A stretch of DNA of 64,000 nucleotides from Terriglobia bacterium (GTDB lineage: Bacteria; Acidobacteriota; Terriglobia; Acidiferrales; UBA7541): assembly GCA_020073605.1 (NCBI GenBank), contig JAIQEW010000015.1:10231-74230 (forward strand). Reading direction: 5' to 3'. A program made the translations under genes and the position numbers. Below the pieces are notes generated by a model. It had not been told where the DNA came from. It saw nothing but the letters and a program-made list of their open reading frames with translations, and ran no database searches. Below are positions 2,707 to 58,889 of the stretch, piece by piece (within the stretch, counting starts at the first letter, position 1; each line of letters begins with the position of its first letter).

Positions 2707-3354
2707 ATGGGGAGATTCGACTTGTTCCCGGCTCTTTACGCAATCCTCGACCCTGCACTGGCGCGCTCTCCGCTAGTGTCCTTGGCGGAAGCCCTTGCCG
2801 GCGCAGGCGTGCAATTGATTCAGCTCCGCGACAAATCCTCGAACGCCCGCCAGCTCCACTCTGAAGCGAGGGATTTAGCAGCGGCTCTCTCGTCCCGCGG
2901 GGTGCGAGTGATCGTGAACGACCGTCCCGACGTCGCCGCGATCGTCGGCGCCGGCGGCGTCCACGTCGGCCAGGAAGATTTGCCGGTTGAGGAAGCGCGC
3001 AAGATCTGCCGGCCGCCGCTCTGGGTGGGTGTTTCGACACACAATATCGAGCAATTGCGCGAGGCCGTTCGCACTTCGGCGGATTATATTGCCGTGGGGC
3101 CTATCTTCCCGACGGCCACAAAAGAGAATCCCGATCCAGTGGTCGGCACCGATCTTCTGCGCGAGGCGCGCCGTATGACGAGCAAGCCGCTCGTCGCCAT
3201 CGGCGGCATCACGCTCGGCCGCGCCGAAGAGGTATTTCGCTCCGGAGCGGACTCGGTCGCCGTGATCGGAGATCTTCTATCGGCTCCCGATCCGGCGGGT
3301 CGTGCGCGCGAGTATCTGGCCGTCGCCGCTCGCGTGCTCCCGGCGCGCACCTGA
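2707..3354 (+). CDS. thiE: Thiamine-phosphate synthase
   Basis: Start taken at ATG 2707 (MGRFDLFPALYAILD). Motifs GVHVGQEDLP and AVGPIFPT are present. The longer ORF from 2326 is an Arg-rich overlap with accC. Confidence 0.85.
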   Translation: MGRFDLFPALYAILDPALARSPLVSLAEALAGAGVQLIQLRDKSSNARQLHSEARDLAAALSSRGVRVIVNDRPDVAAIVGAGGVHVGQEDLPVEEARKICRPPLWVGVSTHNIEQLREAVRTSADYIAVGPIFPTATKENPDPVVGTDLLREARRMTSKPLVAIGGITLGRAEEVFRSGADSVAVIGDLLSAPDPAGRAREYLAVAARVLPART

Positions 3355-3364
3355 AAGCAGGAAA

Positions 3365-4903
3365 ATGGCAGAACGCGTCCAGAAAATCGGATCGGCGGCC
3401 ACCGGCTCTTCCGGTGAGCTGGTGAAGGGCCTCGGCCTGTTCGATTCCACGATGATCGTCGTTGGGTCGATGATCGGGTCGGGGATCTTCATCGTCTCGG
3501 CGGACATTTCCCACCAAGTGCAGAGTCCCGGCTTGCTGCTCGTCGTCTGGCTCGCCTCGGGGCTCATGACGCTCATCGGCGCGCTTAGCTTCGGCGAGCT
3601 GTCGGCGGCGATGCCTCATGCCGGCGGCCAGTATGTGTATCTCCGCGAATCGCTCGGCGAGGTCTGGGGATTTCTGTATGGCTGGACCATGCTCACGGTC
3701 ATTCAAACGGCCACCATCGCCGCGGTGGCCATCGCGTTCGCCAAGTTCACGGGCGTGCTTGCGCCGGGGATTTCTGCGTCACACTGGATCTGGAAAATTG
3801 GCACGCTGGGTCCGTGGAAACTCTGGTTCGGCGAGCTTGGCCCTTACAACGTGGGCCTGAATCGCCAGAGTCTCGTCGCGATTCTCTCCATTGTTTTTCT
3901 CACGTGGGTGAATACGCGAGGCCTGCGTCTCGGCAAAATCGTGCAGAACGTATTCACCGTTGCAAAGACCGCCTCGCTCGCCGGGCTAGTGGTGCTCGGC
4001 TTCTTGTTCTCCACAGCCATCGCCCGCAGCGGGAATTTCACGGGCTTTTGGCGCAACGCGGGATGGTCGGTGATGCATCCGTATCCGCCGGACGGCCCGA
4101 CGTGGATGGTTGGCACGCTCACCCTGGTCGGCGTGGCGATGGTCGGCTCGCTCTTCGCCATGGACGCGTGGAACAGCGTCACGTTCACCGCCGCCGAGGT
4201 GAAGAATCCAAATCGCAACTTACCTCTTTCGCTCGCCCTCGGCTCGGGAATCGTCATTCTGCTCTACACGCTCGCGAACCTTGCCTATCTCCGAGTCTTG
4301 CCGCTATCTGGCGAGGCTCACGGCGCCACGGCGCTCGCTCGGGGTATCGAGTTCGCTTCCGAAGGCCGCGTGGCCACCGCGCTTGCCGAGGTGATCTTCG
4401 GTCCCGCGGGCGCGATTGTGATGGCGCTTGCGATTCTCGTCTCTACGTTTGGCTGCAACAACGGCCTGATCCTTTCCGGTGCTCGCATCTATTACGCGAT
4501 GGCGAAAGACGGCCTCTTTTTCCGCTCCGTGGGCACGGTAAATCGGAACCACGTTCCCGCGGTGGCGCTCGTAGCCCAGTGCGTGTGGGCTTCGGCTCTC
4601 TGCCTCTCCGGCACCTACGGGCAATTGCTCGATTTCCTTATTTTCGCGCAGGTGCTTTTCTACATCCTCACCCTCCTCGGTCTTTTCGTGCTCCGCGTAA
4701 AGCGTCCGGGGATGGAGCGCCCCTATCGCTGCTTCGGTTATCCATTCTTGCCGGCTCTCTACCTCGTCATGGCTGCCTTCCTAGAAATCCAGTTATTGCG
4801 GTATAAACCACAGTACACTTGGCCCGGTCTGATCATCGTTGTGCTCGGTCTGCCGGTGTACGTGCTCTGGAAGTGGGCAGGGAAGTCGCCTGCCAAGACG
4901 TAA
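3365..4903 (+). CDS. APC-superfamily amino acid permease
   Basis: About 12 hydrophobic segments. N-terminal motif GLFDSTMIVVGSMIGSGIF. Start chosen at MAERVQK (ATG 3365). Confidence 0.85.
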   Translation: MAERVQKIGSAATGSSGELVKGLGLFDSTMIVVGSMIGSGIFIVSADISHQVQSPGLLLVVWLASGLMTLIGALSFGELSAAMPHAGGQYVYLRESLGEVWGFLYGWTMLTVIQTATIAAVAIAFAKFTGVLAPGISASHWIWKIGTLGPWKLWFGELGPYNVGLNRQSLVAILSIVFLTWVNTRGLRLGKIVQNVFTVAKTASLAGLVVLGFLFSTAIARSGNFTGFWRNAGWSVMHPYPPDGPTWMVGTLTLVGVAMVGSLFAMDAWNSVTFTAAEVKNPNRNLPLSLALGSGIVILLYTLANLAYLRVLPLSGEAHGATALARGIEFASEGRVATALAEVIFGPAGAIVMALAILVSTFGCNNGLILSGARIYYAMAKDGLFFRSVGTVNRNHVPAVALVAQCVWASALCLSGTYGQLLDFLIFAQVLFYILTLLGLFVLRVKRPGMERPYRCFGYPFLPALYLVMAAFLEIQLLRYKPQYTWPGLIIVVLGLPVYVLWKWAGKSPAKT

Positions 4904-8584: not shown

Positions 8585-10177
8585 ATGAAAATTCTGACCG
8601 CCGCCGAAATGAGAGAAGTGGACCGGCTCTCCACCGAGCGCCATGGGGTTCCGAGCTTGGACCTCATGGAAAACGCCGGCAGGAGCGTCGCGGAGTTCAT
8701 CCATTCACGATTCCCCGATTTTGCGCGGCGCCACATCGTGGTCATCTGTGGCAAGGGCAACAACGGCGGGGACGGCTTCGTCGTCGCGCGCCACCTGCTG
8801 AAAATGGGCGCGAAGCCATCGCTCTATCTCATCGGTGATGCGCAGGAAGTGAAAGGCGACGCTGCAACGAATCTGAAGCGGTGGAAGAATGCCTCCGGTA
8901 AGACCCATGTGATTCGGGAGCAGAGCGAGTGGCAAGCCGCGAAGGGAACTTTTGCCACCGCCGATATCGTGGTGGACGCGCTGCTCGGCACGGGTGTTCG
9001 CGGTCCTGTCGAAGGCCTTCTCGGCGAAGTTATCGACGACGTGAATCGCGTCGGGCGCCCGGTGCGCTCGGTGGTCATTGCAGTGGACATTCCTTCCGGC
9101 CTGCCCGCGGATTCAGGTGCCATCCAGGGCGCGGTGGTTCAAGCCGACTACACGGTCACGTTCACGGCCCCGAAGCCGGGCATGGTTTCCGGAGACGGCG
9201 CACCGCGCTGCGGCCAGATTGTCGTTCGGGAGATTGGGTCGCCTCCCGAGTTGATCGAAGAGATCGGGAAGGGCACGCTGCGGTGGCTGGATGCAGGAGA
9301 GGTCGGCGTCTTCGGCATGCCGCGCGAGTCGGAAGGGCACAAGGGTGACTACGGCCATGTCCTGATCGTCGCGGGCTCCGTCGGAAAGAGCGGAGCGGCG
9401 GTCCTCGCCTCGTGGGCCGCCATTCGTGCGGGAGCTGGACTTGTGACGGTGGCTACGCCCGCCCCGGTGCTTCCCATGATCGCGGCTCACACTCCGGAAG
9501 TGATGACCGAGCCGCTGCCTGCCACCGACTCTGGCAGCATTTCGTTCGGCGGCCTCGATCAAACCAAGTTTGAAGCCACTTTAAAAGGGAAGCGCGTCCT
9601 CGCCATGGGTCCGGGCCTCTCGACACACAACGACACGCAGCGATTCGTCCGCGCCGTGGTTGGCAAGCGGCTGGTCCCTATCATTCTGGACGCGGATGGA
9701 TTGAACGCTTTTGCCGGGCGCGCCCGGGATTTGAAGCACGCCACCGATGTCATTTGCGTGACGCCCCACCCGGGCGAAATGGCGCGCCTCCTCGAATGCA
9801 CATCGAGGGAGGTGCAAGCTCGGCGCGTCGAGCTTGCGCGCAGGGCCGCCACGGATTGGAACGCGATTGTCATTCTGAAGGGCCATGGGACCGTCATCGC
9901 TGCGCCGGACGGAAATGCGTTCGTCAACTCCACCGGCAATGCCGGGATGGCCACTGGAGGTACCGGGGACGTCCTCACCGGCATCCTCGCCGCGGTCACG
10001 GCGCAGTTTGGGGTGACGCCCTGGTGGCGAGTCCTCGCCTTCGGCGTGTACCTTCACGGCCTCGCCGGCGACATTGCCTATGCCGATAGCGGCGGGGCGC
10101 CGCTGATGGCCTCCGATTTGATTTACGCCATTCCCCGCGCCTACCAGCAATTCTATGCCGCGTGCAGCCGTGCCTAG
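8585..10177 (+). CDS. nnr: Bifunctional NAD(P)H-hydrate epimerase / ADP-dependent dehydratase
   Basis: YjeF N-terminal domain (MKILTAAEMREVD.., CGKGNNGGDG) fused to a carbohydrate-kinase-like C-terminal domain (GDYGHVLIVAGS.., GTGDVLTGI). Confidence 0.9.
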   Translation: MKILTAAEMREVDRLSTERHGVPSLDLMENAGRSVAEFIHSRFPDFARRHIVVICGKGNNGGDGFVVARHLLKMGAKPSLYLIGDAQEVKGDAATNLKRWKNASGKTHVIREQSEWQAAKGTFATADIVVDALLGTGVRGPVEGLLGEVIDDVNRVGRPVRSVVIAVDIPSGLPADSGAIQGAVVQADYTVTFTAPKPGMVSGDGAPRCGQIVVREIGSPPELIEEIGKGTLRWLDAGEVGVFGMPRESEGHKGDYGHVLIVAGSVGKSGAAVLASWAAIRAGAGLVTVATPAPVLPMIAAHTPEVMTEPLPATDSGSISFGGLDQTKFEATLKGKRVLAMGPGLSTHNDTQRFVRAVVGKRLVPIILDADGLNAFAGRARDLKHATDVICVTPHPGEMARLLECTSREVQARRVELARRAATDWNAIVILKGHGTVIAAPDGNAFVNSTGNAGMATGGTGDVLTGILAAVTAQFGVTPWWRVLAFGVYLHGLAGDIAYADSGGAPLMASDLIYAIPRAYQQFYAACSRA

Positions 10178-10619
10178 GCGCGAGATCGTCACACACTCCT
10201 CGGAAGAAACGATCCAGCTTGGGCGTGAAATCGGTGCGCAGTTGAAGCCCCCTGCGTTGATCCTGTTGTCAGGCGATCTCGGGGCAGGGAAGACGACGCT
10301 CACGAAGGGAATCGCGACCGGCTTGGGCGCCGCCGCGGAAGAGGATGTGACCAGCCCCACCTTCACGCTCGTACACAAGTACGACGGCAGCACTCGCGTC
10401 TACCACGTGGATCTCTATCGCATAGGGGACATCCACGATCTCGAAACGCTCGGCCTCGAGGACGTTTTCGCGGAAAAGGCCGTGGTCATCGTCGAGTGGC
10501 CCGAAAAGTTTGCGATTCGCACGGATTGGCCCATCGTGAACATCCACCTCGAACACGTCTCCGAAGATATCCGCCGGATCTCCATCGACGACCCGGCGGA
10601 GGTTCTATCCTCGAGCTGA
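10155..10619 (+). CDS. tsaE: tRNA t6A biosynthesis ATPase TsaE
   Basis: 154 aa with P-loop GDLGAGKTTLTKG and the YHVDLYR motif. Overlaps the nnr stop. Confidence 0.85.
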   Translation: MPRAAVPRREIVTHSSEETIQLGREIGAQLKPPALILLSGDLGAGKTTLTKGIATGLGAAAEEDVTSPTFTLVHKYDGSTRVYHVDLYRIGDIHDLETLGLEDVFAEKAVVIVEWPEKFAIRTDWPIVNIHLEHVSEDIRRISIDDPAEVLSSS

Positions 10620-10667
10620 AATTGAATTGTCCGATGTAACAGGTTGCTGAAAAAGTCCCTGCGTGCG

Positions 10668-10730
10668 GAAGGGCGGGGTTTTAACCCCGCCGTAACCCAC
10701 GTGCGTTCTTCAGGGGTTTCAACCCCTGAA
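10668..10730. repeat. REP-like double hairpin (GGGCGGGG-loop-CCCCGCC plus TCAGGGG-loop-CCCCTGA) between convergent tsaE and fabI
   Basis: Perfect inverted repeats were read directly at 10671-10691 and 10710-10729. The element may also act as a bidirectional terminator. Confidence 0.7.
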
Positions 10731-10797
10731 GTCCGGCGTTGAGTGTTTCAGCACCCTGGTAAGGCCGGGCAAAGCGAAGCGCCAGCTGCCGCTCCCG

Positions 10798-11565
10798 CTA
10801 CCCCATAATGTGAAACCCGGCGTCCACGTAGATGACGTTCCCGGTGACGCCGCGCCCGAGGTCGCTTCCGAGGAACACGGCGGTGTCGGCCACTTCGGCG
10901 ATGTCGGTATTTCGCCGGAGCGGCGCATGCTGCGCGGCGAAGTCGAGCAGTTTCGAAAAATCCTTGATGCCCCGTGCGGAGATGGTCTTGATGGCGCCCG
11001 CCGAAATCGCGTTGACGCGAATTTTGTTCGGCCCCAGTTCGCTGGCCAGATATCTCATTTCGGCTTCGAGCGCCGCCTTGGCCACGCCCATCATATTGTA
11101 GCCGGGCACCACGCGCGTCGATCCGAGGTAGGTCATCGTCATGATCGCGCCGCCATCGGTCATCAGTGGCGAAAGCGCTTTGGCGATGGCGACGAGGGAA
11201 TAGGCGCTCACGTCGAGCGCGAACTGGAACCCGTCCCGCGAAGTGTTCGCGAACGGCTGATTCAAGTCTTCGTGTTTTGCGGCCGCCAGGCTGTGGACCA
11301 CGACGTCGAGCTTGCGTCCTTGCGCCTGGAGCGCTTCGGCCAGTTTGTCAATATCCGCCTGTTGCTGAACCTCGCAAGGGAACAGCCCCGAGGCCCCCAG
11401 TGTCTGCCCGAGTTCTTCGACCGTGGGCTTGGCGCGTTCGTTTTGATAGGTGAGCAGCAGGGTCGCGCCCTCGCGCACAAACGCCTGTGCGATCGCGTAC
11501 GCGATGCTCCATTTGTTCCACACGCCGAGAACGATGGCCGTCTTGCCTTCCATTAGTTTTGACAT
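10798..11565 (-). CDS. fabI: Enoyl-ACP reductase (NADH), FabI
   Basis: SDR fold with N-terminus MSKLMEGKTAIVLGVWNKWSIAYAIA, the Y..M....K active-site region (YNMMGVAKAALE) and SAGAIKT. Confidence 0.9.
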   Translation of the reverse strand: MSKLMEGKTAIVLGVWNKWSIAYAIAQAFVREGATLLLTYQNERAKPTVEELGQTLGASGLFPCEVQQQADIDKLAEALQAQGRKLDVVVHSLAAAKHEDLNQPFANTSRDGFQFALDVSAYSLVAIAKALSPLMTDGGAIMTMTYLGSTRVVPGYNMMGVAKAALEAEMRYLASELGPNKIRVNAISAGAIKTISARGIKDFSKLLDFAAQHAPLRRNTDIAEVADTAVFLGSDLGRGVTGNVIYVDAGFHIMG

Positions 11566-14646: not shown

Positions 14647-14745
14647 GGAGGCGAAAGGAGTCCGGTGACTTTCGTGGCCTTCAAAGCCATGGATCCTGTC
14701 CTTTGCGGCCAGGATGGTGGGTTCGACTCCCACACGCTTCCGCCA
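14647..14745 (+). tRNA. selC: tRNA-Sec (anticodon UCA)
   Basis: 99 nt. It has an 8-bp acceptor (GGAGGCGA / ACGCTTCC, one G-U pair and a terminal mismatch) and a 6-bp D stem with a 4-nt loop (GGAGTC-CGGT-GACTTT). The anticodon loop CTTCAAA carries TCA at 14681-14683. A long variable arm, T arm GTGGG-TTCGACT-CCCAC, discriminator G and encoded CCA complete the fold. The layout parallels E. coli selC. A TATACT -10-like hexamer ends 7 nt upstream. Confidence 0.85.
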
Positions 14746-39390: not shown

Positions 39391-39588
39391 CTACCGCACA
39401 TCGCGGAAAACCGTGAGATCGCGCAAGGGCGCGAGGCCGAGCGCGCGAGATCGATCTCCCAGGCTCATCCGCCATGGATAAGGGCGGACGAACTGGGAGC
39501 CCTTTCTGCGGTAGCGCGCTCCGGTGCGCCACCACGCGCGGAAGTCGGTGAGCGACCAGATCAATTGTGCTTTCGGACGCGCGTTCAT
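39391..39588 (-). CDS. Possible 65-aa protein translationally coupled to the transglycosylase gene
   Basis: ATGA start/stop overlap with the SLT gene at 39585-39588. Sequence MNARPKAQLIWSLTDFRAWWRTGARYRRKG... No family was recognised. Confidence 0.3.
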   Translation of the reverse strand: MNARPKAQLIWSLTDFRAWWRTGARYRRKGSQFVRPYPWRMSLGDRSRALGLAPLRDLTVFRDVR

Positions 39589-40079
39589 CGGTAGTTCGCG
39601 ATGCGGGCGAGGACTTGCGGTGCGTAGCCAGCGTTCGCGCCGCCGTTCCAGAGCGTGAGGGCGCGCGCAATATCGCTGTCCGCCGAACTGATCTTTGCTG
39701 CGAGAGCAGCACAGCCGATGTCGAGCCCGGCGGGCGGATCGCACAGCGCGCTGAGGAATTTTCCCGTGAAGCCGTGCTCGCGCGCGACCTGTCCCATCAC
39801 CTGCATCAGTCCCCAGGAGATCGAGCGCGCCACTTCCTCGGTCGGAGGGAGGCCGAGCGGCGCGACGTAGTGCACGCGGAAGGCAGGCTCGTAGCGGATC
39901 GCGTGGGTGTCCCAGGAGGATTCCTGCTCGACGACGGCGCAAACGAGCGCGGGATCGAGCGCGTACTTCGTGGCAGCGGCGCGGGCAAGCGCGATCAGAT
40001 CGGCAGGAGGGGACATGGTGGACACGGACCAAGGAAACAAGGAGGCAAGATGCAAAGACGCGGCGCCGCGCGGACACAT
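39585..40079 (-). CDS. Lytic transglycosylase (SLT/lysozyme-like domain), endolysin-like
   Basis: 164 aa with the catalytic context VVEQESSWDTHAIRYEP and WGLMQVMG. No signal peptide is evident. Confidence 0.85.
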   Translation of the reverse strand: MCPRGAASLHLASLFPWSVSTMSPPADLIALARAAATKYALDPALVCAVVEQESSWDTHAIRYEPAFRVHYVAPLGLPPTEEVARSISWGLMQVMGQVAREHGFTGKFLSALCDPPAGLDIGCAALAAKISSADSDIARALTLWNGGANAGYAPQVLARIANYR

Positions 40080-44457: not shown

Positions 44458-44874
44458 ATGCCTGATAATGCCTCGGGCAGCGACCTTTTCTCGTTTGACC
44501 GGGCGCAGCGAGCGCCCTCCGTGCCCTACCCTGCCCAGCCGTACGCTCCCTATGCCGACGCGTGGAAGGAATTCGACAAGCTGCAAAAAGCCGTGCGCGG
44601 CCAGGGCCCGCTTCGGTGGATTCACTGGGTGTTTGACATGGTGGTGTTCGGCGGCGGAGCGTTTGGACTTCACCTGCTGAAAGGACACAAGCTCATCATT
44701 GGTTACAGTATCGGTGCGCTCATAGTTGCCGAGATCTATTCGTACTTCAGCCGGAGAGAACGATTCCTTCACTGGCAGTGCCCGCGCTGCCGCAGCGAAT
44801 GGCCCGGCACGAAAACCGAAAAAGATACCAGGTGCAAGTTCTGTCACCTCCAACTCCATCAGATGGCGCCGTAA
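44458..44874 (+). CDS. Hypothetical membrane protein with C-terminal zinc-ribbon (CPRC..CKFC)
   Basis: Start at MPDNASGSDLF. Two hydrophobic helices, then WQCPRCRSEWPGTKTEKDTRCKFCH. TATACT lies 8 nt before the ATG, so the transcript may be leaderless. Confidence 0.5.
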   Translation: MPDNASGSDLFSFDRAQRAPSVPYPAQPYAPYADAWKEFDKLQKAVRGQGPLRWIHWVFDMVVFGGGAFGLHLLKGHKLIIGYSIGALIVAEIYSYFSRRERFLHWQCPRCRSEWPGTKTEKDTRCKFCHLQLHQMAP

Positions 44875-44984: not shown

Positions 44985-45554
44985 TCAGGAGTGGCGGTTA
45001 ATCTGGAACAGCAGAGCGTTCAGCTTTGTGGCTAGCTTTCGATATGCACGCTCTTGCTCCGAGATTTGGTCCTGGGTATACACCTTGAATGGGAAACCTC
45101 CACCCGTGGCGGCGCCTTTGTAGTCCAAATAGGCGTCAGTGATGTTGTCGAAGCCCCTGATAAGTGGGGAACACTGACTCATTCCGAGTGCTGATTCCAC
45201 GTGCCCAATTCCGTTTGCCACGCGACGAAGAGCGGAGAGAATGGTCTTCTTATCGCTCTTGTTGATGCGTGACGCGTCGTGGCAGCTAATTAGTGCCTCG
45301 CGGGACGACTTGAGCTCTACCAGAACATCCCGTAGATCACTGATGAGTAGGTCCTTTTCAGCTCGCAGATTACTTGCCTTCTCCTGAAAATACTGGGTTA
45401 CAAAGAGTGCGATAAAGACATTGACCGCTAGTATCCCGAGCTCTACCGGCTTGATCTCGAGATCAAGATGAAAGCCGAACAAACAGTAGTACGCACTGAG
45501 CACAATGGCGCAAAACGTAGCAACTATGAGCAGCGCAACCCAGACGGCTTTCAT
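44985..45554 (-). CDS. Two-TM membrane protein with helical cytoplasmic tail (candidate effector of the cassette)
   Basis: 189 aa. TM1 AVWVALLIVATFCAIVLSAYYCLFGF and TM2 LGILAVNVFIALFVTQYF. ATGA overlap with the upstream gene. A/T-richer codon usage. Confidence 0.6.
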   Translation of the reverse strand: MKAVWVALLIVATFCAIVLSAYYCLFGFHLDLEIKPVELGILAVNVFIALFVTQYFQEKASNLRAEKDLLISDLRDVLVELKSSREALISCHDASRINKSDKKTILSALRRVANGIGHVESALGMSQCSPLIRGFDNITDAYLDYKGAATGGGFPFKVYTQDQISEQERAYRKLATKLNALLFQINRHS

Positions 45555-45871
45555 TTCTTGCGGGCTTCCTTAATGTATTTGGTGATTTCCTGCACGAGAT
45601 ACGGCTCGTCTTCGCACTTGAAGGTTAGGGTGTCGAGGATCTTCGACGCTTCGTACTCGCGTGCAAGGCCTCCAAATGCAGCTTCGAGGAATGAAGTGGC
45701 ATAGCCTTCTGTCCCGTCCAGATCAATATTGAGCTTCTGCCCTGCGGCGACCGACTCGACAAATTGTGGTCTCAGCAAAGTCTCCAAGAACTCCTCCCCG
45801 GAGAAGTCGCCTTCCTCTCTTGATCTCGGTCCCGGTGTCTGCGAAAAGTCGCGCGCTACGGAAATTGCCAT
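45551..45871 (-). CDS. DUF4325-like (STAS-like) small protein
   Basis: 106 aa. ARDFSQTPGPRSREEGDFSGEEF .. KLNIDLDGTEGYATSFLEAAFGGL matches my recollection of the DUF4325 pattern. AAAGGA SD lies 8 nt upstream. Confidence 0.6.
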   Translation of the reverse strand: MAISVARDFSQTPGPRSREEGDFSGEEFLETLLRPQFVESVAAGQKLNIDLDGTEGYATSFLEAAFGGLAREYEASKILDTLTFKCEDEPYLVQEITKYIKEARKK

Positions 45872-45883
45872 TGTGAGTCCTTT

Positions 45884-46951
45884 CTACTGACTCTCCCAGT
45901 ACAGAAGAGTCCCGGCGAATTCAGTGGGGAGCACTCTGAAATCCCCGGTCGTAAGGTTCGCGTATACGTCATTTGCGATGATGACCAAAGAAAGTATTCT
46001 GCCTTCTTGAAAGAGGCGATAAATCGCCGGGATACCTTTACCCCGATAGGCCACGCCCGTACTAGATTCTACTTTGCCTTCAAGAATGTCTCTCAGAATT
46101 CTTGTGTTACTCGTCACGCCAGCGAGTCGATAGAGGTGTCGCATTGCGCCTATCTTTATGCTTCGGAAGATCCCCACGCCCACATCCAGAAACGTGTAAC
46201 ACACTCTCCCGGTTAGCTTATCGGCGTACACGGTTGCCCACCAAGTCTTGGTGCCCGCATGCTGTTTCCCAGCATGGTTGTGGGTATTAGACATACTTTC
46301 AATTAGCACTCGATACGTGCTGAAATGATGCCTCGGGGCCCCATAGTTTGCCTCCGTGCCAATGTGAATTAGGTCTCGCGCAACCGTTGGCTCCACTTTC
46401 TTGCTTTGCTTCTGGAGGATTCTGCCTCTGGTACATGGTGGTAGCGGATTAACACTCCGTGCGTAGTCGAAAAATCCAGACTGCATCAGCATCTCAGTCG
46501 CGGCAAAGTCATTCGGCACGTTGCCCCTTACTCGGGTTTCGGGCATTCCGCGTATGGTCGCGACCAACGCCGCAACCGCGTCGGACGTCATCGCGGTAAT
46601 ACCACTAAGGTCAAATGCCAGATTGCTCTTTTCGCCAAGAAACTTGACCTGACGAAGGAATGCGGTCACTTCCTCGGGGTTTCTGACGAGGGAGAACACA
46701 TTGGGAGCAGTGACGGTTACAAACTTTGGCCCCTCGTGTTTTCGTCGTTTTATTCGCTCGGCTTGAAGTGCTCGCTTCTTAACCCTGTGCCGCTGCCTCT
46801 TGCGCAGCTCATCTTCTTGTCTGTGCCTTAGGTAGTTCTTCCATTTGTTGGTCGAATACAGTTTTTTCGACATTGTGGGCGAGAAGCGCCCCAAAGTGTA
46901 AACCGATTCATCATAGCGGACAAGATAACGGTGTTGCAGGCGGTAGAACAC
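45884..46951 (-). CDS. STAS-like domain fused to a GHKL (HATPase_c, SpoIIAB/RsbW-like) ATPase/kinase, with Lys/Arg-rich N-terminus
   Basis: N-box ESMSNTHNHA, G1 FLDVGVGIF, G2-like YRGKGIP. Upstream STAS-like NLAFDLSGITAMTSDAVAALVATI..ATEMLMQSGFFDY. Start is either GTG 46951 or ATG 46873. Confidence 0.6.
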   Translation of the reverse strand: MFYRLQHRYLVRYDESVYTLGRFSPTMSKKLYSTNKWKNYLRHRQEDELRKRQRHRVKKRALQAERIKRRKHEGPKFVTVTAPNVFSLVRNPEEVTAFLRQVKFLGEKSNLAFDLSGITAMTSDAVAALVATIRGMPETRVRGNVPNDFAATEMLMQSGFFDYARSVNPLPPCTRGRILQKQSKKVEPTVARDLIHIGTEANYGAPRHHFSTYRVLIESMSNTHNHAGKQHAGTKTWWATVYADKLTGRVCYTFLDVGVGIFRSIKIGAMRHLYRLAGVTSNTRILRDILEGKVESSTGVAYRGKGIPAIYRLFQEGRILSLVIIANDVYANLTTGDFRVLPTEFAGTLLYWESQ

Positions 46952-46953
46952 AC

Positions 46954-47208
46954 CTAATCGCGCGAGCGATGGCTGAGGTCGAGCCAGCGGATGGGAGGGA
47001 GCGGCTTGCGGTCAATTCCCTGCTCTTCGCAGAGCTTTTCCAGGCGCTCGTAGATGTGGGGCAAGTGGTTCGTCGCCATGTCGTGGACGAATGTGCGTGT
47101 GATCTCGTCGTTGCGAATTCGGCGATAGAGCCAGCGCAGAAACACGACGAGCTGCACGGCGGCGCTCAACGCAACAGCTGGCCAGTAGGAATCAAGGAGT
47201 GTGTGCAT
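46954..47208 (-). CDS. Hypothetical 84-aa single-TM protein
   Basis: MHTLLDSYWPAVALSAAVQLVVFLRWLY.. Its stop lies 2 nt before the GTG of the next gene. Its GC resembles the flanks rather than the cassette. Confidence 0.4.
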   Translation of the reverse strand: MHTLLDSYWPAVALSAAVQLVVFLRWLYRRIRNDEITRTFVHDMATNHLPHIYERLEKLCEEQGIDRKPLPPIRWLDLSHRSRD

Positions 47209-51760: not shown

Positions 51761-52777
51761 TTACGAACTGAACGTGTAATTGTGCGTCAGGATGGAGGCG
51801 GCGTGGCGGCCGGCGAAGAATTGGTGCGATGGCTCGCAACTCACGGTGACTTTTCTCCCAAGCTCCCCGCTTTCGGTGATTACCTCGATTTTACGGAGCG
51901 TGACGCGGCCAAATCGGCCCACTAAGACGTCGCACATGCAGAGGCGCTCGGCGCGCATCGGCGAGCCGTCGGCGAGCGTGAAGATGTGGTGCGGCGTCAC
52001 GTCGAGCGACTCCGCGTTCGAAAAGTGAAGGCGGATGAACGTGTCCGCGTCGCGGACCTCGAGGCGCACGATGCGCGTCCACGCTTCCCCGCCCGCGGCC
52101 GAGGGGCAGCGCAGGTGTTCGCCCACCTTGCACGTTTCGATTTCAACCGTGCCCCGCTCCTTGGTGAGCACGATCGTCCCAGCGCGCAGGCAGCTTCCGC
52201 TGCCGCCGCCCGAGCCGCCGCCTGTGCCGCTGGTGGTGGTCGCGGCGACCATCGCGCCCTGCGAGAGCGGGACGCGCCCCTGAAGCGACTGCTGCTGCGC
52301 GGCGAGATTCGTCTTCGCGGTCTGCGCGTTTGCGGGAGAGCCAGCGCCGCCCGCCACCCACGCGAGCGCCGCAGCGACGTCGTCCCAGTAAGGATAGAAA
52401 TAGTAGGTGGTGCCCGGCGTGAGGCCGGTGACGATCACGGAGCCGTTAGGGACCGCCGTGGCGGTGCCGTCGGCGCGATAGATCGAGAGGCCGGACCAGG
52501 TCCACGTGAGGCTCGTCGTGGTGGAGGCGTAGGTGAACGCGCCGGACCACGTCGGCGGCACGGAGCCTTTCATCAGCACGCCCGATTTCGTCGGATCGAT
52601 CTTCCCTGCCGTGAGGGCGGCGCTGGCAACGCGCGCGAATTGCTCGCCGTCGGTGATCTGGTGGTCGAGGCTCCAGCCCTGGTTCGGGCCCAGCGACGCG
52701 CCGACGAGGCGCTTCAGCGTTTCATAGAGCTGCGGGTTCGTTTTGCGCAGCGCTTCGATTTGAGGGATGGTGAGCAT
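51761..52777 (-). CDS. Phage tail-fibre-like protein with C-terminal Hint/bacterial-intein-like (BIL) domain
   Basis: 338 aa. After a Gly/Ser linker (TSGTGGGSGGGSGS) the Hint module starts at Cys196 (CLRAGTIVLT) and ends ASILTHN, with only YTFSS following. The N-terminal half is a beta-rich FN3-like region (TGLTPGTTYYFYPYWD). Confidence 0.6.
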   Translation of the reverse strand: MLTIPQIEALRKTNPQLYETLKRLVGASLGPNQGWSLDHQITDGEQFARVASAALTAGKIDPTKSGVLMKGSVPPTWSGAFTYASTTTSLTWTWSGLSIYRADGTATAVPNGSVIVTGLTPGTTYYFYPYWDDVAAALAWVAGGAGSPANAQTAKTNLAAQQQSLQGRVPLSQGAMVAATTTSGTGGGSGGGSGSCLRAGTIVLTKERGTVEIETCKVGEHLRCPSAAGGEAWTRIVRLEVRDADTFIRLHFSNAESLDVTPHHIFTLADGSPMRAERLCMCDVLVGRFGRVTLRKIEVITESGELGRKVTVSCEPSHQFFAGRHAASILTHNYTFSS

Positions 52778-53771: not shown

Positions 53772-54087
53772 ATCCGCCGGAGCCGCCGGCTGGAGGAAGG
53801 GCCATGGATTGTTGCTTCCCTACGCCAACTCTTGATAAACGCACTGACCGGTTGAGCCGACACGACTAATCGGGCAGACGCTGGCGTCTTGGCACTGTGA
53901 GCATGGTCACAAGCACGGGTGAGCCCCCTCACCGCCTCAATTGCGTATTAGAGCTACACAAAGCTGTCGAAGGTCCGATTCCATGACGCCGGAGCGCAAT
54001 TCTCACGAACTTGGGGGGGCGACCCATCCGAAGGCAAGCCCGGGTAGTTTCATAGCTCGGTTTTCTTCCGAAGAGGGGAATCATTTC

Positions 54088-54402
54088 ATGAGACACGAGC
54101 CGAAAGAAGTGGTTGATCGCGTGATGCGCGAGTACAACGAAAATCAGGAACACATTAACAGATTGGCGGTCGAACTCTCGAGAATAGGGAGAAGGCTTAT
54201 CGACTTAGGCGAAGCGCTGGCGGGGAACCCAGAGGGCGTACACTTAACTGCTGGAGGCGTCGATATTAAGTATTCGAGTGATCTTGACGTCGCTAAATTG
54301 GCATCGCTAACGAACGATTACAGAAACGCGCTGCAAACCAGAGCGCATCTGGAAGACCAGCTTAGACAGCTTGGTATTCCGCCCCCTCGGGACACATACT
54401 GA
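54088..54402 (+). CDS. Hypothetical 104-aa helical protein
   Basis: GAGGGG SD lies 9 nt before ATG 54088. Predicted coiled-coil-like (..INRLAVELSRIGRRLIDLGEALAG..). A/T-richer. No family was recognised. Confidence 0.4.
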   Translation: MRHEPKEVVDRVMREYNENQEHINRLAVELSRIGRRLIDLGEALAGNPEGVHLTAGGVDIKYSSDLDVAKLASLTNDYRNALQTRAHLEDQLRQLGIPPPRDTY

Positions 54403-56150: not shown

Positions 56151-56508
56151 CCCTGCACCGCGCCGCGGAGAAATATGGATTGCCAACACGGGTGATCCCC
56201 CGCGGAGGCATTGGGTTGTAATCGTGTCTGTCGATACTCGCAATCAAAGCCCGCGCGCCGAGTCAGTATTGGCGGTCCCCTTCGGTAGCAAGCCCGCGGG
56301 TGCACCGACGATCATTGCATTTGAGCCCGGCGAAACTGGCCTGCCGGGTCCGTCGTACCTGCGGGGCGAACTGATTCAACCCCTTTTGAAATCACGCCTC
56401 GTCGAGCGACTCAATCGTCCTTTGTCAGATCGCCGAATGCGTGAGGTATGCCTGGCGATCCGGCGCTCCTTCGATCCGGATGCCCCTGCCGACAATCCTC
56501 GAATCTAG
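56143..56508 (+). CDS. PemK/MazF-family type II toxin (endoribonuclease)
   Basis: 121 aa. RRGEIWIANTGDPPRRHWVVIVSVD .. VLAVPFGSKP fits the MazF/PemK SH3-like barrel pattern. Confidence 0.75.
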   Translation: MANPAPRRGEIWIANTGDPPRRHWVVIVSVDTRNQSPRAESVLAVPFGSKPAGAPTIIAFEPGETGLPGPSYLRGELIQPLLKSRLVERLNRPLSDRRMREVCLAIRRSFDPDAPADNPRI

Positions 56509-58889
56509 TTCGTACCCCTCACAAGGGCGAAGGGATCGGGCTTGGCCCAGGGGGCGAGCTTGGTGAGCGAGAACCAGGAGCCGACGGCGTTGGTCCCGAG
56601 CTGGTACGAGACGCGCTCGGCGAGCACGTTGGTGAACTGCTCCATGTCGCGCGAGGCAGGCGCGCCGAGCGTCCACGAGCCAAGTGACTGGACCACCACG
56701 CTGCCCGGTGAAAGCGCCGCCAGCGCGAGCGAGCCCGCTCCCTGCACGTAGGCCGTGAGATAGCCGAAGAGATTTCTCCCGCTGAAGCCCGTGGCCGCGA
56801 GAAACGCGGTCGAATAGAACGAATTGATCGCCGCGCCGTCATCTGCATGTGCGCCGGGCGTGAGCGCGTAAACCTTCCCGCTTGAATTATTCGACCCGAG
56901 AAAGACCTGCGCGACCCCCGTGGGCCGCTCGATCAGCGCGCACGAATTTGCGGAAATCATCCAAGGCGCCCATTTCCGCGAGCGCTCCGGCGCGGTGAGC
57001 ATGGCGACGAGCGGGTCGCCGAATCCTTCGGTGTAGTCGAGCATGAGGATCTGGTTCGGCTGTGTCGCGCTGCCCATCGGCACGCCCACCAGAATGCGTT
57101 TGTGCTGCGTATCCACCTGCACCCAGATGAGCTGGCCGTACTGCCAGTTGATCGCGTCCCACGTGGGCTGAATTTCCTGGGAAATCTTCACAGGCTCGCT
57201 GCCGTCGAAGAGGTAGAGTCCCGAGCGACTGGCGATCACGACCCATTCCTCGCCGTACCCGACGCCGCGCGGCGAAGGCGTGCCGACGCTGTTGGACACT
57301 TCCTCGACCTGCCACAGCGCCGGCTCGTTGACGCCGTCGGTGGCCGTCACATACATGCTGCGTTCCTTGACGAAGTAGAGGTTGTTGCGCAGCTTGAACG
57401 CGGCGCGAATTCCCTGCCCGTTGTTTTCGGCGATGCTCATGATTCCGGTGACGCCGTCGTAGGCCTCGGGCTTTTCCGTGCCGGACGCGCGCACCAGTGA
57501 AGGATCCTGCGGCGCGCTGGTGACGAAGATTTCGATGTTGTCGATGGCGAAGTATTCGCCGCTCGGCGCGGGAATGCCGTCCACGTAGACGCGCAGGATG
57601 AGGTCGGACGGCAGGGACGTCTGCGGCGTGAAGAGCTGCGCGGTGAATTCCTGGTAGCTGGTGGTGGTCTGCGCGATCGTGACGGACATGCCCGCGCCGA
57701 GCAGCCCGACCGTCGGGCTGTAGGCATTGACGCGCAGCGTGCCGGCCGAAATATTCCCGGAGTGCTTCACGCGAGCGCGCACGGAGTAGCCCGTGTTTTT
57801 CACCATCAGAGGATTTCCCGCTGCGTCCGTGATGGCGCTTTGATAGATCATGCCGCGCGCGGCGGTGGCGCCGTCGGCCGTCATACGGTACGCGTCGCCC
57901 CAGATCGCGTCGACCGGGTCGCGGCTGCCGCCCGCGCCGAACGTCAGATCGAGCTGCCAGCCGAGCGGGCGTCCGCTGCCCGATGCGTCCCAGCCGCCGT
58001 CGAAGGTGAGGTTGCGCCAGTTGTCCATGTTGGCGCGCTCGCCCCACCAGAAAAGTCGCTCGGCGTAATCGACCACGCCGAGCTGTTCCTGAAGCTCGAT
58101 CTGGCTGAAAAGATAATCCACGCTCGCGCCGGAGAGCAGAATCGCATCCGTGAAATCGACGGTGAGCGACGTGGTGGTGTTGTCGTTGATCGCCATCGTC
58201 GCGGGCACGTGATAGAAGCTCGCGCCGCCCGACGCCGTGAACGCGAGCAGGCGCTGCACCACGTTCGACGGGCCGGTGGGAATATTCGTCACGCTCACTT
58301 TCTTGGTGCCCGCGGCGGTCCACGAAACCGGCGGCGATGGCGCGGTCCAGTAGCCCTGCCGCGTGACGAATACGACCACGCACTGATGCACGCCCGGCGA
58401 AATGTTTCCACTGGGCGTGTCGGCGACGGATGGTCCTTCGGCGGGGCCGATCTGGCTGACGCGATCGTAGTTTACGTCGTCGTACTGCCGCGGCAGGTCC
58501 TGGCCGGTGAGGCCGTCGCCGATCGCCATGTACTCGCGGCCGAAATGCGTGGTCGAGGTGAAATATAGATTTGGCTGCGAGGCGCCCGCGAGCAAAAGCG
58601 AAAGCGTGCCGGGCGTGATTTCCTTGTAGAGATTTCCGAAGGAATCGAGCGCGAGCAGGTGCGGGACGAGATTGGGCGTGATGTAGCTCTTCATCCCGTT
58701 GATCTTCGGCGCGCCGGCGAGCACCGGGAATTGCGAGACGAGGCCGGGGCGCGTGCGGACTCCTCCCGGGAAGAAATCGACGTCGCCGAGATTGGGCGAC
58801 ATCCCGGGCGGCACGTCGGAGGGGTCGAGGAGCGTGACCCATGTGCCGAAGGTGGTCAGCGGTAGAGGCGAAAAGGTTTCGATGGACAT
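56505..58889 (-). CDS. Large phage-like virion/tail structural protein (family not identified)
   Basis: 794 aa, beta-rich, no signal peptide. The alternative 692-aa frame is Arg-rich noise. It sits among other phage-like genes and is bounded by repeat tracts. Confidence 0.55.
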   Translation of the reverse strand: MSIETFSPLPLTTFGTWVTLLDPSDVPPGMSPNLGDVDFFPGGVRTRPGLVSQFPVLAGAPKINGMKSYITPNLVPHLLALDSFGNLYKEITPGTLSLLLAGASQPNLYFTSTTHFGREYMAIGDGLTGQDLPRQYDDVNYDRVSQIGPAEGPSVADTPSGNISPGVHQCVVVFVTRQGYWTAPSPPVSWTAAGTKKVSVTNIPTGPSNVVQRLLAFTASGGASFYHVPATMAINDNTTTSLTVDFTDAILLSGASVDYLFSQIELQEQLGVVDYAERLFWWGERANMDNWRNLTFDGGWDASGSGRPLGWQLDLTFGAGGSRDPVDAIWGDAYRMTADGATAARGMIYQSAITDAAGNPLMVKNTGYSVRARVKHSGNISAGTLRVNAYSPTVGLLGAGMSVTIAQTTTSYQEFTAQLFTPQTSLPSDLILRVYVDGIPAPSGEYFAIDNIEIFVTSAPQDPSLVRASGTEKPEAYDGVTGIMSIAENNGQGIRAAFKLRNNLYFVKERSMYVTATDGVNEPALWQVEEVSNSVGTPSPRGVGYGEEWVVIASRSGLYLFDGSEPVKISQEIQPTWDAINWQYGQLIWVQVDTQHKRILVGVPMGSATQPNQILMLDYTEGFGDPLVAMLTAPERSRKWAPWMISANSCALIERPTGVAQVFLGSNNSSGKVYALTPGAHADDGAAINSFYSTAFLAATGFSGRNLFGYLTAYVQGAGSLALAALSPGSVVVQSLGSWTLGAPASRDMEQFTNVLAERVSYQLGTNAVGSWFSLTKLAPWAKPDPFALVRGTN

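Follow-up and report, generated by a model that had tools for sequence, protein, structure and literature searches.

A mobile three-gene cassette encoding a STAS–GHKL kinase, a DUF4325 protein, and a two-helix membrane protein as a candidate conflict module related to VapKSC

The 64,000-nucleotide stretch of contig JAIQEW010000015.1 from a Terriglobia bacterium (assembly GCA_020073605.1, positions 10,231 to 74,230 of the forward strand; hereafter the window) contains three co-directional genes on the minus strand, here designated K, S, and T, which constitute a self-contained, horizontally mobile module. K (45884..46873) encodes a protein of 329 amino acids in which a basic helix at the N-terminus is followed by a STAS domain and then by a Ser/Thr kinase domain of the GHKL (SpoIIAB-like) type. 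S (45551..45871, 106 amino acids) is a single-domain STAS protein of the DUF4325 family with a short C-terminal helix. T (44985..45554, 189 amino acids) is an inner-membrane protein with two transmembrane helices and a four-helix bundle, which is predicted to lie in the cytoplasm. By analogy with the VapKSC system, we consider it somewhat probable that K-S-T is a mobile three-gene conflict module built on the kinase–substrate core of VapKSC, in which T takes the position of the VapC toxin and would act as a membrane effector released by phosphorylation.

A first-pass annotation, made from the nucleotide sequence, had described three (or four) coupled minus-strand open reading frames (ORFs). 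In the ORF list, the three downstream ones cover 44985–45554 (189 amino acids), 45551–45871 (106 amino acids), and 45884–46951 (355 amino acids). The DNA shows a 12-nucleotide gap with the sequence AAAGGA ahead of the ATG of S at 45871, and an ATGA overlap of the S stop codon and the T start codon (45551–45554). The start of the largest ORF had to be revised. The N-terminal sequence MSKKLYST is conserved in 85 out of 85 K homologs, including a database entry of 329 amino acids with 100% identity. Because all 85 homologs begin at this sequence, the K gene spans 45884–46873 with an ATG at 46873, whereas the GTG at 46951 is an extension introduced by the ORF caller. The protein previously given as 355 amino acids long is therefore 329 amino acids long, and the TAG-2nt-GTG junction between this ORF and the one upstream of it, although present as a sequence, carries no biological weight. 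The upstream ORF itself (46954..47208, minus strand; 84 amino acids, or 124 amino acids when read from a TTG) lies outside the K-S-T unit. It has a host-like GC content of 60%, no homolog of it was found beside K-S-T in any of 70 related loci, and it matched no family in Pfam, PADLOC, NCBIfam, or PHROG. It was rejected as a fourth component for these reasons, so that of the originally proposed cassette the three genes K, S, and T are retained. A promoter and terminator scan gave nothing beyond the expectation from shuffled sequences.

The structure of K was predicted with AlphaFold2 from an alignment of 48 sequences (predicted local distance difference test score [pLDDT] 87.2, predicted template modeling score 0.79). 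The model consists of three parts, namely a basic helix (residues 8–46), an alpha/beta domain (residues ~50–140; 46454..46726), and a second alpha/beta domain (residues ~150–329; 45887..46426). The second of these is a GHKL/Bergerat-fold kinase domain. When the model was compared with the PDB using Foldseek, the top six matches were all SpoIIAB (E 2.4e-4 to 1.1e-2, template modeling scores of 0.60–0.68 on the target), among them the entries 1th8, 1l0o, and 1til (E 2e-4 to 8e-4). The N-terminal alpha/beta domain is STAS-like and matched RsbS (6jhk_B), RsbV (6m37_C), TM1442 (1vc1), and the STAS domain of SLC26A9 with probabilities of 0.63–0.90; a profile search of the PDB with K also returned the STAS protein TM1442, below threshold (E = 0.6). 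In K, a STAS domain is joined to a GHKL kinase of the SpoIIAB/RsbW type, and the domain assignment of the first-pass annotation is borne out by the model and these fold matches. Sequence databases were less informative, with no match of K in Pfam, NCBIfam, or PADLOC and a sole match in PHROG to phrog_3364, a family without assigned function. A PDB search with the single K sequence gave matches to ribosomal proteins only, which were rejected as composition bias caused by the low-complexity basic N-terminus.

The ATP-binding motifs of the kinase domain are conserved. The N-box ESMSNTHNHA (E192–A201, pattern E192xxxN196TxxH200A; 46271–46300), the G1 motif DVGVG (D230–G234, pattern D230xGxG; 46172–46186), the G2 motif RGKG (R277–G280, pattern R277GxG; 46034–46045), and the G3 motif (G321-T322) are invariant or present in 95% or more of 60 sequences drawn from many phyla, and the N-box, G1, and G2 sequences quoted in the first-pass annotation are among them. 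In the STAS domain, P57, F60, S61, G117, P120, and S132-G133-F134 are invariant. The position equivalent to the phosphorylation site (residue 97) is mostly proline among the homologs; the STAS domain of K is therefore probably not phosphorylated itself, and S rather than K is the likely substrate. The N-terminal helix (residues 1–46; 46736..46873) is long and highly basic, with 20 Lys/Arg in the first 50 residues of the protein, and 14–20 Lys/Arg were counted in the same stretch of most K homologs sampled from several phyla. This helix may bind nucleic acid or the membrane.

Two characterized systems are related to K and S. CapK, an HTH (helix-turn-helix)–STAS–GHKL kinase, is switched on by single-stranded DNA (ssDNA), and its partner CapS is a repressor consisting of a STAS domain and a winged helix-turn-helix (wHTH) domain (Chambers et al., EMBO J 2026, PMC13373217). 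The pair is encoded upstream of CBASS, Bub, or Thoeris operons and acts as a switch of transcription (PMC13373217). The vapKSC operon encodes VapK, a STAS–GHKL kinase, VapS, a STAS protein with a short C-terminal helix that serves as an antitoxin binding VapC, and the PIN toxin VapC; the phosphomimetic exchange S48E frees VapS from VapC, and the operon shields E. coli from phage Bas42 (PMC13373217). The aromatic residue that stacks on ssDNA is W68 in CapK and F54 in VapK, and a transmembrane effector variant is not mentioned in this study (PMC13373217).

S belongs to Pfam DUF4325 (PF14213, "STAS-like"; E = 2.2e-12, 47 bits compared to a gathering cut-off of 23), in agreement with the family named in the first-pass annotation, and gave nothing significant against PADLOC at E ≤ 1. 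When the family profile of S was run against the whole PDB, the top match was VapS (9z7o_A, E = 0.041), with S48 of VapS aligned to T59 of S (45695–45697). T59 is the candidate phospho-acceptor: its column contains Ser or Thr in 95% of 64 sequences, and it is directly followed by the invariant S60 (45692–45694). By analogy with VapS, S is predicted to be the kinase substrate and an antitoxin-like inhibitor.

For a direct comparison, a vapKSC operon was recovered from a metagenome contig (L090), in which VapK is encoded at 3025–3933, VapS at 3938–4288, and VapC at 4288–4899. The VapS of this contig is a DUF4325 protein (PF14213, E = 3e-17) and its VapC a PIN protein. A further VapS match, on a Leptotrichia plasmid (L074), proved to be a DUF4325 gene fragment and was set aside. 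An hhalign comparison of K and VapK gave E = 8e-4 over 225 colinear columns covering STAS and GHKL domains, in which the N, G1, G2, and G3 motifs coincide, and VapK scored 23 bits against the hidden Markov model (HMM) of the K family. The two cassettes share the order of kinase, STAS protein, and third gene, all co-directional with tight or overlapping junctions, and VapS and VapC overlap in the recovered operon just as S and T do. In both, the kinase is a STAS–GHKL fusion, distantly homologous and with the same motifs, the middle protein is a DUF4325 STAS protein of ~110 amino acids that ends in a helix and has a conserved Ser or Thr in the equivalent place, and a phosphatase is absent from the system. 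The distribution is patchy and mobile in both cases and lies partly inside defense islands; for vapKSC, the fraction within 10 kb of defense genes is 36%. K-S-T shares a homologous K-S core with VapKSC and probably operates in the same manner.

The differences concern the third gene, which encodes a cytoplasmic PIN RNase in VapKSC and a two-transmembrane protein with a four-helix bundle here; T has no PIN match, and the T HMM does not match VapC. In addition, K carries an extra basic N-terminal helix of ~46 residues that is absent from VapK, and the two kinases are only ~20% identical. The likeness to CapK–CapS consists in a STAS–GHKL kinase with a STAS partner encoded immediately downstream, of which CapK phosphorylates a conserved serine in CapS, and in the same structural relation to SpoIIAB and SpoIIAA. 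However, CapS has a C-terminal wHTH domain, whereas S with its 106 amino acids is STAS only and lacks a DNA-binding domain; CapK has an N-terminal HTH where K has a single basic helix, and no conserved operon follows K-S-T, the downstream genes being variable. The first-pass annotation had recognized no named system in the cassette. This still holds insofar as there is no exact match, the effector being different, but the closely related VapKSC and CapKS have been named in the meantime (PMC13373217).

K relatives were sought in one genome per GTDB species, which yielded 70 loci, and S and T were located at these loci by iterative local HMMs. At each of the 62 loci whose downstream sequence is long enough, which cover at least 12 phyla, K is followed by S and then T, all on one strand; in the remaining eight loci, the sequence ends inside or just past K or S. 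The stop codon of S and the start codon of T overlap by 4 nucleotides in 32 of the 62 loci, and most of the others overlap by 8–38 nucleotides. The loci belong to Acidobacteriota, Bacteroidota, Patescibacteria, several proteobacterial lineages, Bdellovibrionota, Omnitrophota, Verrucomicrobiota, Fibrobacterota, Spirochaetota, Binatia, and others, and one short K-bearing contig was binned as Woesearchaeota. A K profile search of 1.84 billion cluster representatives (50% identity) retrieved 3,392 clusters at E ≤ 1e-3 and 1,108 at E ≤ 1e-30; the weaker tail of these clusters probably includes relatives of the VapK/CapK type. The GC content of K-S-T was below that of the flanks in 51 of 53 loci (mean difference −7.5 points).

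The surroundings of the triad are not conserved. Clustering of 549 flanking ORFs revealed no neighbor family in more than three of ~65 loci, and neither a sigma factor nor a PP2C phosphatase was present among the 25 most frequent families of the 113 nearest neighbors. A conserved fourth gene, be it a phosphatase, a sigma factor, or a regulator, was ruled out by this clustering. Given the synteny in 62 out of 62 loci and the lack of a recurring neighbor family, the unit consists of exactly three genes. The co-occurrence suggested as a check in the first-pass annotation was therefore found throughout, and a fixed housekeeping context, which had been named there as a possible refutation, was not. 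Decaying copies were observed as well: K is split in locus L002 (6001–7014), T is split in L029 (7265–7836), and all three genes are fragmented in L070 (185–1306). No locus with S alone disrupted was seen, and the patterns of decay are anecdotally compatible with S as a component that cannot be lost alone.

The AlphaFold2 model of T (pLDDT 83.7) contains two N-terminal transmembrane helices and a helical tail, as had been read from the sequence before. The first transmembrane helix comprises residues 2–22 (45489–45551) and the second residues 36–58 (45381–45449), and the latter runs on into the four-helix bundle (44994–45380). At least two hydrophobic segments are present in 55 of 56 T homologs. 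Hydropathy and charge counts in these 56 sequences predict an N-in/C-in topology with an outside loop of ~13 residues, which places the bundle in the cytoplasm. One residue of T is nearly invariant, T150 (45105–45107), which is kept in 53 of 56 homologs and is located within the motif ATGG.F at the membrane-distal tip. The motif persists beyond the detected family. Distant K-S pairs in viral contigs are followed by shorter third genes encoding 148–173 amino acids (L085, 8045–8491; L088, 7011–7487; L086, 1260–1781), which have one hydrophobic N-terminal segment and still contain the motif ATGG(D/T)FE, indicating that the T family is wider than the T HMM detects. A match of T to a fragment of the PADLOC pAgo model (E = 0.013) was rejected as spurious. 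One protein of the T family has been named "archaellum component FlaC" by the Joint Genome Institute, which is probably a misannotation of a coiled coil or helical bundle. Because of its position in the cassette and by analogy with VapC, T is the predicted effector.

Taking VapKSC and CapKS as a guide, the following course of events can be envisaged. In an unperturbed cell, unphosphorylated S would be bound to the cytoplasmic bundle of T and T would be inactive. K would be switched on by an infection or DNA-damage cue, probably a nucleic acid, which may be sensed via the STAS/GHKL groove and/or the family-specific basic N-terminal helix. S would then be phosphorylated by K at T59, and phospho-S would let go of T. 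Freed T would perturb the membrane, resulting in depolarization, leakage, or growth arrest, and its action would abort the infection or exclude a superinfecting phage. The phosphorylation of S by K, the binding of S to T, the toxicity of T, the nature of the trigger, and the anti-phage role are all modeled on the characterized relatives by analogy. In the light of VapKSC, the trigger-dependent release of an effector, which the first-pass annotation had put forward, is the best-supported model; however, S likely inhibits the effector until it is phosphorylated, rather than taking part in a classical partner switch of the anti-sigma type.

Several observations weigh against this interpretation. 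T lacks a recognizable toxin, pore, or enzyme domain and had nothing significant in Pfam, PADLOC, PHROG, or NCBIfam; Foldseek searches with T against PDB and BFVD returned only generic helical bundles, none at E ≤ 1e-3, and are uninformative on its function. No model of PADLOC-DB v2 matches K, S, or T. In sequence, K and S resemble VapK and VapS only weakly (hhalign probability 20–25%; PDB E = 0.041), so that the homology of K and S to these proteins rests on colinearity, shared motifs, and shared Pfam membership. F54 of VapK aligns to A94 of K, in a column that is occupied by T, K, Q, D, L, or Y in 60 homologs and is mostly nonaromatic, and an alignment uncertainty of ~1 residue does not restore an aromatic residue at this place. 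Since the ssDNA-stacking aromatic residue (W68 in CapK, F54 in VapK) is not conserved, the trigger of K may differ from ssDNA. With neither the PIN effector nor the ssDNA-stacking residue found, the cassette is not a VapKSC system sensu stricto. Finally, many loci are situated among ordinary metabolic genes (e.g., L093 and L096), and the association with defense islands, given here without comparison to a background frequency, is suggestive.

The most serious alternative for the role of K and S derives from the SpoIIAB–SpoIIAA–sigmaF and RsbW–RsbV–sigmaB modules. These have the same kinase fold with N, G1, and G2 boxes, SpoIIAB being the best PDB match of K, and the same STAS antagonist fold, in which a phosphorylatable Ser/Thr marks the N-terminal end of helix 2. 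In a classical switch of this type, K would sequester the cytoplasmic domain of T, unphosphorylated S would displace T, and K would inactivate S by phosphorylation. In such a system without a phosphatase, T would be freed when ATP falls or when newly made S outruns K, and the module would be a sensor of the energy or translation state. The closest solved structures of the kinase domain are indeed SpoIIAB in complex with SpoIIAA or sigma F, K might use its basic helix and its fused STAS domain as docking surfaces, and T150, exposed at the tip of T, may serve as a contact or as another phosphorylation site; the lack of a PP2C phosphatase or sigma factor as a conserved neighbor would also fit. 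The same lack sets K-S-T apart from the SpoIIAB and RsbW modules, as do the fusion of K to a STAS domain of its own, the membrane protein as output, and the mobile and accessory character of the triad, which is not a core developmental or stress regulator. In CapKS and VapKSC, the only characterized relatives, however, it is the STAS protein that binds the output and phosphorylation that frees it (PMC13373217). Moreover, the translationally coupled pair is S and T, not K and T. Sequestration of T by K is therefore regarded as unlikely.

A second alternative concerns T, which could be a sensor or anchor instead of an effector. The bundle would then signal to K and S that the envelope has been disturbed, for instance by phage DNA injection or by a holin, and as output K would phosphorylate further proteins of the host or the phage or bind nucleic acid through its basic helix. 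The best, non-significant fold matches of T are sensor-type four-helix bundles, namely the ligand-binding domains of Tar, KinB, and PcaY. T also lacks a catalytic motif, diverges fast, and is swapped for unrelated one-transmembrane proteins in Marinobacter phage AS1 and a Helicobacter prophage (see below). An envelope sensor is nevertheless difficult to reconcile with a bundle predicted to be cytoplasmic and an outside loop of only ~13 residues; the third gene of VapKSC encodes a toxin, and the system would otherwise have no effector. Overall, a sensory role of T appears decidedly unlikely, and release of T as an effector by phosphorylation of S remains the preferred interpretation.

The genomic contexts of the triad include defense islands, plasmids, and prophages; known defense genes and prophages are the neighbors that the first-pass annotation had proposed to look for. 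Defense-type proteins encoded by the 113 nearest neighbors are OLD/GajA-like ATPases (three), methylases of the C5 and Eco57I types, a Type ISP enzyme and ResIII helicases, proteases resembling caspases, nucleotidyltransferases of the MNT type, NTPases of the KAP and HerA families, and an integrase. Genes of an ordinary kind, for example those for Hsp70, MutS, ExoVII, and HemD, are found among these neighbors too. In locus L095, the triad is flanked by a type I restriction–modification system, MazE/PIN, and a TIR-TPR protein, and by a Gabija-like AAA_15/UvrD pair on the other side. AbiEi/AbiEii are located directly downstream of the triad in three loci (L050, L055, and L065). It adjoins an integrase and an excisionase in L094 and is followed by an MNT/HepT pair on the Leptospira interrogans plasmid p4. 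In L050, a metagenome-assembled genome of Flavobacterium psychrophilum, a paralogous GHKL-type gene (9831–11018, 395 amino acids, E = 2e-31 to the K HMM) was found after AbiEi/AbiEii. Its product has no basic N-terminus, and the rest of the locus shows no separate S or T behind it; the gene may represent one more variant of this kinase family.

K was also detected in 14 viral contigs of IMG/VR, most of which carry S and T as well. In some of the phage copies, the triad adjoins the gene of the terminase small subunit, in others it adjoins cI. A tblastn search with the K of the window against 50,697 phage records gave no match; Marinobacter phage AS1 was found through S and a viral K homolog as queries. 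The order in this temperate phage is cro, a divergent cI (Phage_CI_repr, E = 1.4e-7), K (371 amino acids), S (DUF4325), and a gene for a one-transmembrane protein of 159 amino acids, with cI, K, S, and the last gene joined by 4-nucleotide overlaps. In the gene table of Francisella phage KIRK, a CI repressor precedes a 293-amino-acid protein with phage AS1 as best match, a DUF4325 protein, and a transmembrane protein (PMC7924643). A Helicobacter prophage encodes K, S, and a one-transmembrane protein of 134 amino acids, and the third genes of this prophage and of phage AS1 are without detectable similarity to T. In lambda, the position directly downstream of cI is that of rexAB. The triad resembles RexA–RexB in occupying this position in the phages AS1 and KIRK, and it shares with RexA–RexB and other membrane-acting exclusion systems of prophages the proposed logic of a cytoplasmic sensor that would gate a membrane protein. 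To our knowledge, Rex has no kinase or STAS component, and no sequence or fold relation to K-S-T is expected.

The viral copies, from 14 contigs and from isolated temperate phages, some of them beside the gene of the terminase small subunit and others beside cI, could also point to a benefit for the phage. T would then be a holin- or antiholin-like protein under the control of phosphorylation that serves lysis timing or a lysogeny switch, and the chromosomal copies would be prophage remnants. However, most of the 70 genome loci and the window itself lack adjacent phage structural or lysis genes, copies on plasmids and in defense islands exist, and the position downstream of cI is typical of exclusion genes expressed in the lysogen, not of lysis cassettes. 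We regard a role of this kind as very improbable.

Within the window, K-S-T is the compositionally most deviating segment. Its GC content of 51.8% compares to a window mean of 61.8% (standard deviation 2.5) and is the lowest of 1243 sliding windows of equal length, in line with the A/T-richness noted in the first-pass annotation. It is hardly conceivable that the triad is a housekeeping stress module of Acidobacteria, in which an orphan partner-switching pair acts on a distant sigma factor or on the PP2C phosphatase encoded 38 kb away: control of stress sigma factors is the classic role of SpoIIAB-like kinases and STAS antagonists, but no segment of the window is more foreign in composition than the triad, which occurs in at least 12 phyla, on plasmids, in phages, and between unrelated flanks, and no sigma factor or PP2C phosphatase co-occurs with it.

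The genes around the triad in the window encode a sedolisin-type protease, an SLT transglycosylase, a dienelactone hydrolase, a CMD-family protein, and unannotated ORFs. The cassette had been placed between a sedolisin gene and phage-like genes, of which the former was confirmed. For the latter, the only phage-like signals near the cassette are an ORF of 794 amino acids (56505–58889, minus strand), ~10 kb from the triad, with a match to a virion structural protein in PHROG (E = 2e-9), and the SLT-type transglycosylase (39585–40079, minus strand), ~5 kb from the triad on the opposite side, which matches endolysin and tail-lysin PHROGs. Five further ORFs of the right flank had no phage-like match. 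With just one weak virion-protein match among the right-flank ORFs tested, the window is not supported as a clear prophage, and a prophage context is not established here. A tRNA gene, an integrase, and att-like flanking direct repeats were searched for at the edges of the island, and none was found.

Further features of the window were recorded. An ORF of 138 amino acids (44458–44874, plus strand) converges on the 3′ end of T and encodes a hydrophobic segment and a C-terminal zinc-ribbon-like motif (CxxC...CxxC); its GC content is intermediate (58.5%), its best match is to the PADLOC model PDC-S64 and not significant (E = 0.04), and it is not conserved beside K-S-T at other loci. The C-terminal half of a protein of 338 amino acids (51761–52777, minus strand) appears Hint/intein-like by eye only (…GSGSCLRAGT… to …ILTHNYTFSS); there is no Pfam match on record for it and no PHROG match. 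To the right of this ORF, a third dip in GC content extends from ~52.7 to 54.8 kb and reaches 51–52% in 400-nucleotide windows. The only long ORF listed there is 53941–54402, and the dip may be another small island. The stretch with the second-lowest GC content (~13.9–16.9 kb, ~54–55% compared to 62% for the window) contains a tRNA-SeC gene (anticodon TCA; 14647–14745) and may have been acquired as well or may just be the selenocysteine locus.

K-S-T is undescribed in the searchable literature and is a natural extension of the CapKS/VapKSC work of 2026 rather than a surprise. That work revealed the STAS–GHKL kinase and its DUF4325 STAS substrate as a portable sensor and switch for bacterial immunity, and in K-S-T the same core is wired to a small inner-membrane protein instead of a nuclease or a promoter. 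A broader version of this interpretation, which we regard as rather doubtful at present, is that K-S-T represents a widespread, undescribed class of phosphorylation-gated membrane effectors serving in prophage exclusion and abortive infection, with a cue other than ssDNA and with T150 as a second, direct phosphorylation switch. The cue may in this case be RNA or DNA bound by the Arg/Lys-rich N-terminal helix, or a fall in ATP. If this is true, K-S-T would be a kinase-gated membrane channel without counterpart among the characterized bacterial immune effectors, and it would occupy, in temperate phages from several phyla, the "rex" niche beside cI. Already the release of T by phosphorylation of S, if it takes place as proposed, would add a new effector class to kinase-controlled toxin–antitoxin immunity and assign a candidate function to hundreds of genes annotated as "hypothetical" or DUF4325. 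It would also provide a tractable system, in lysogens of phage AS1 or KIRK or by heterologous expression, for studying how phosphorylation gates a membrane effector and what a divergent kinase of this family senses.

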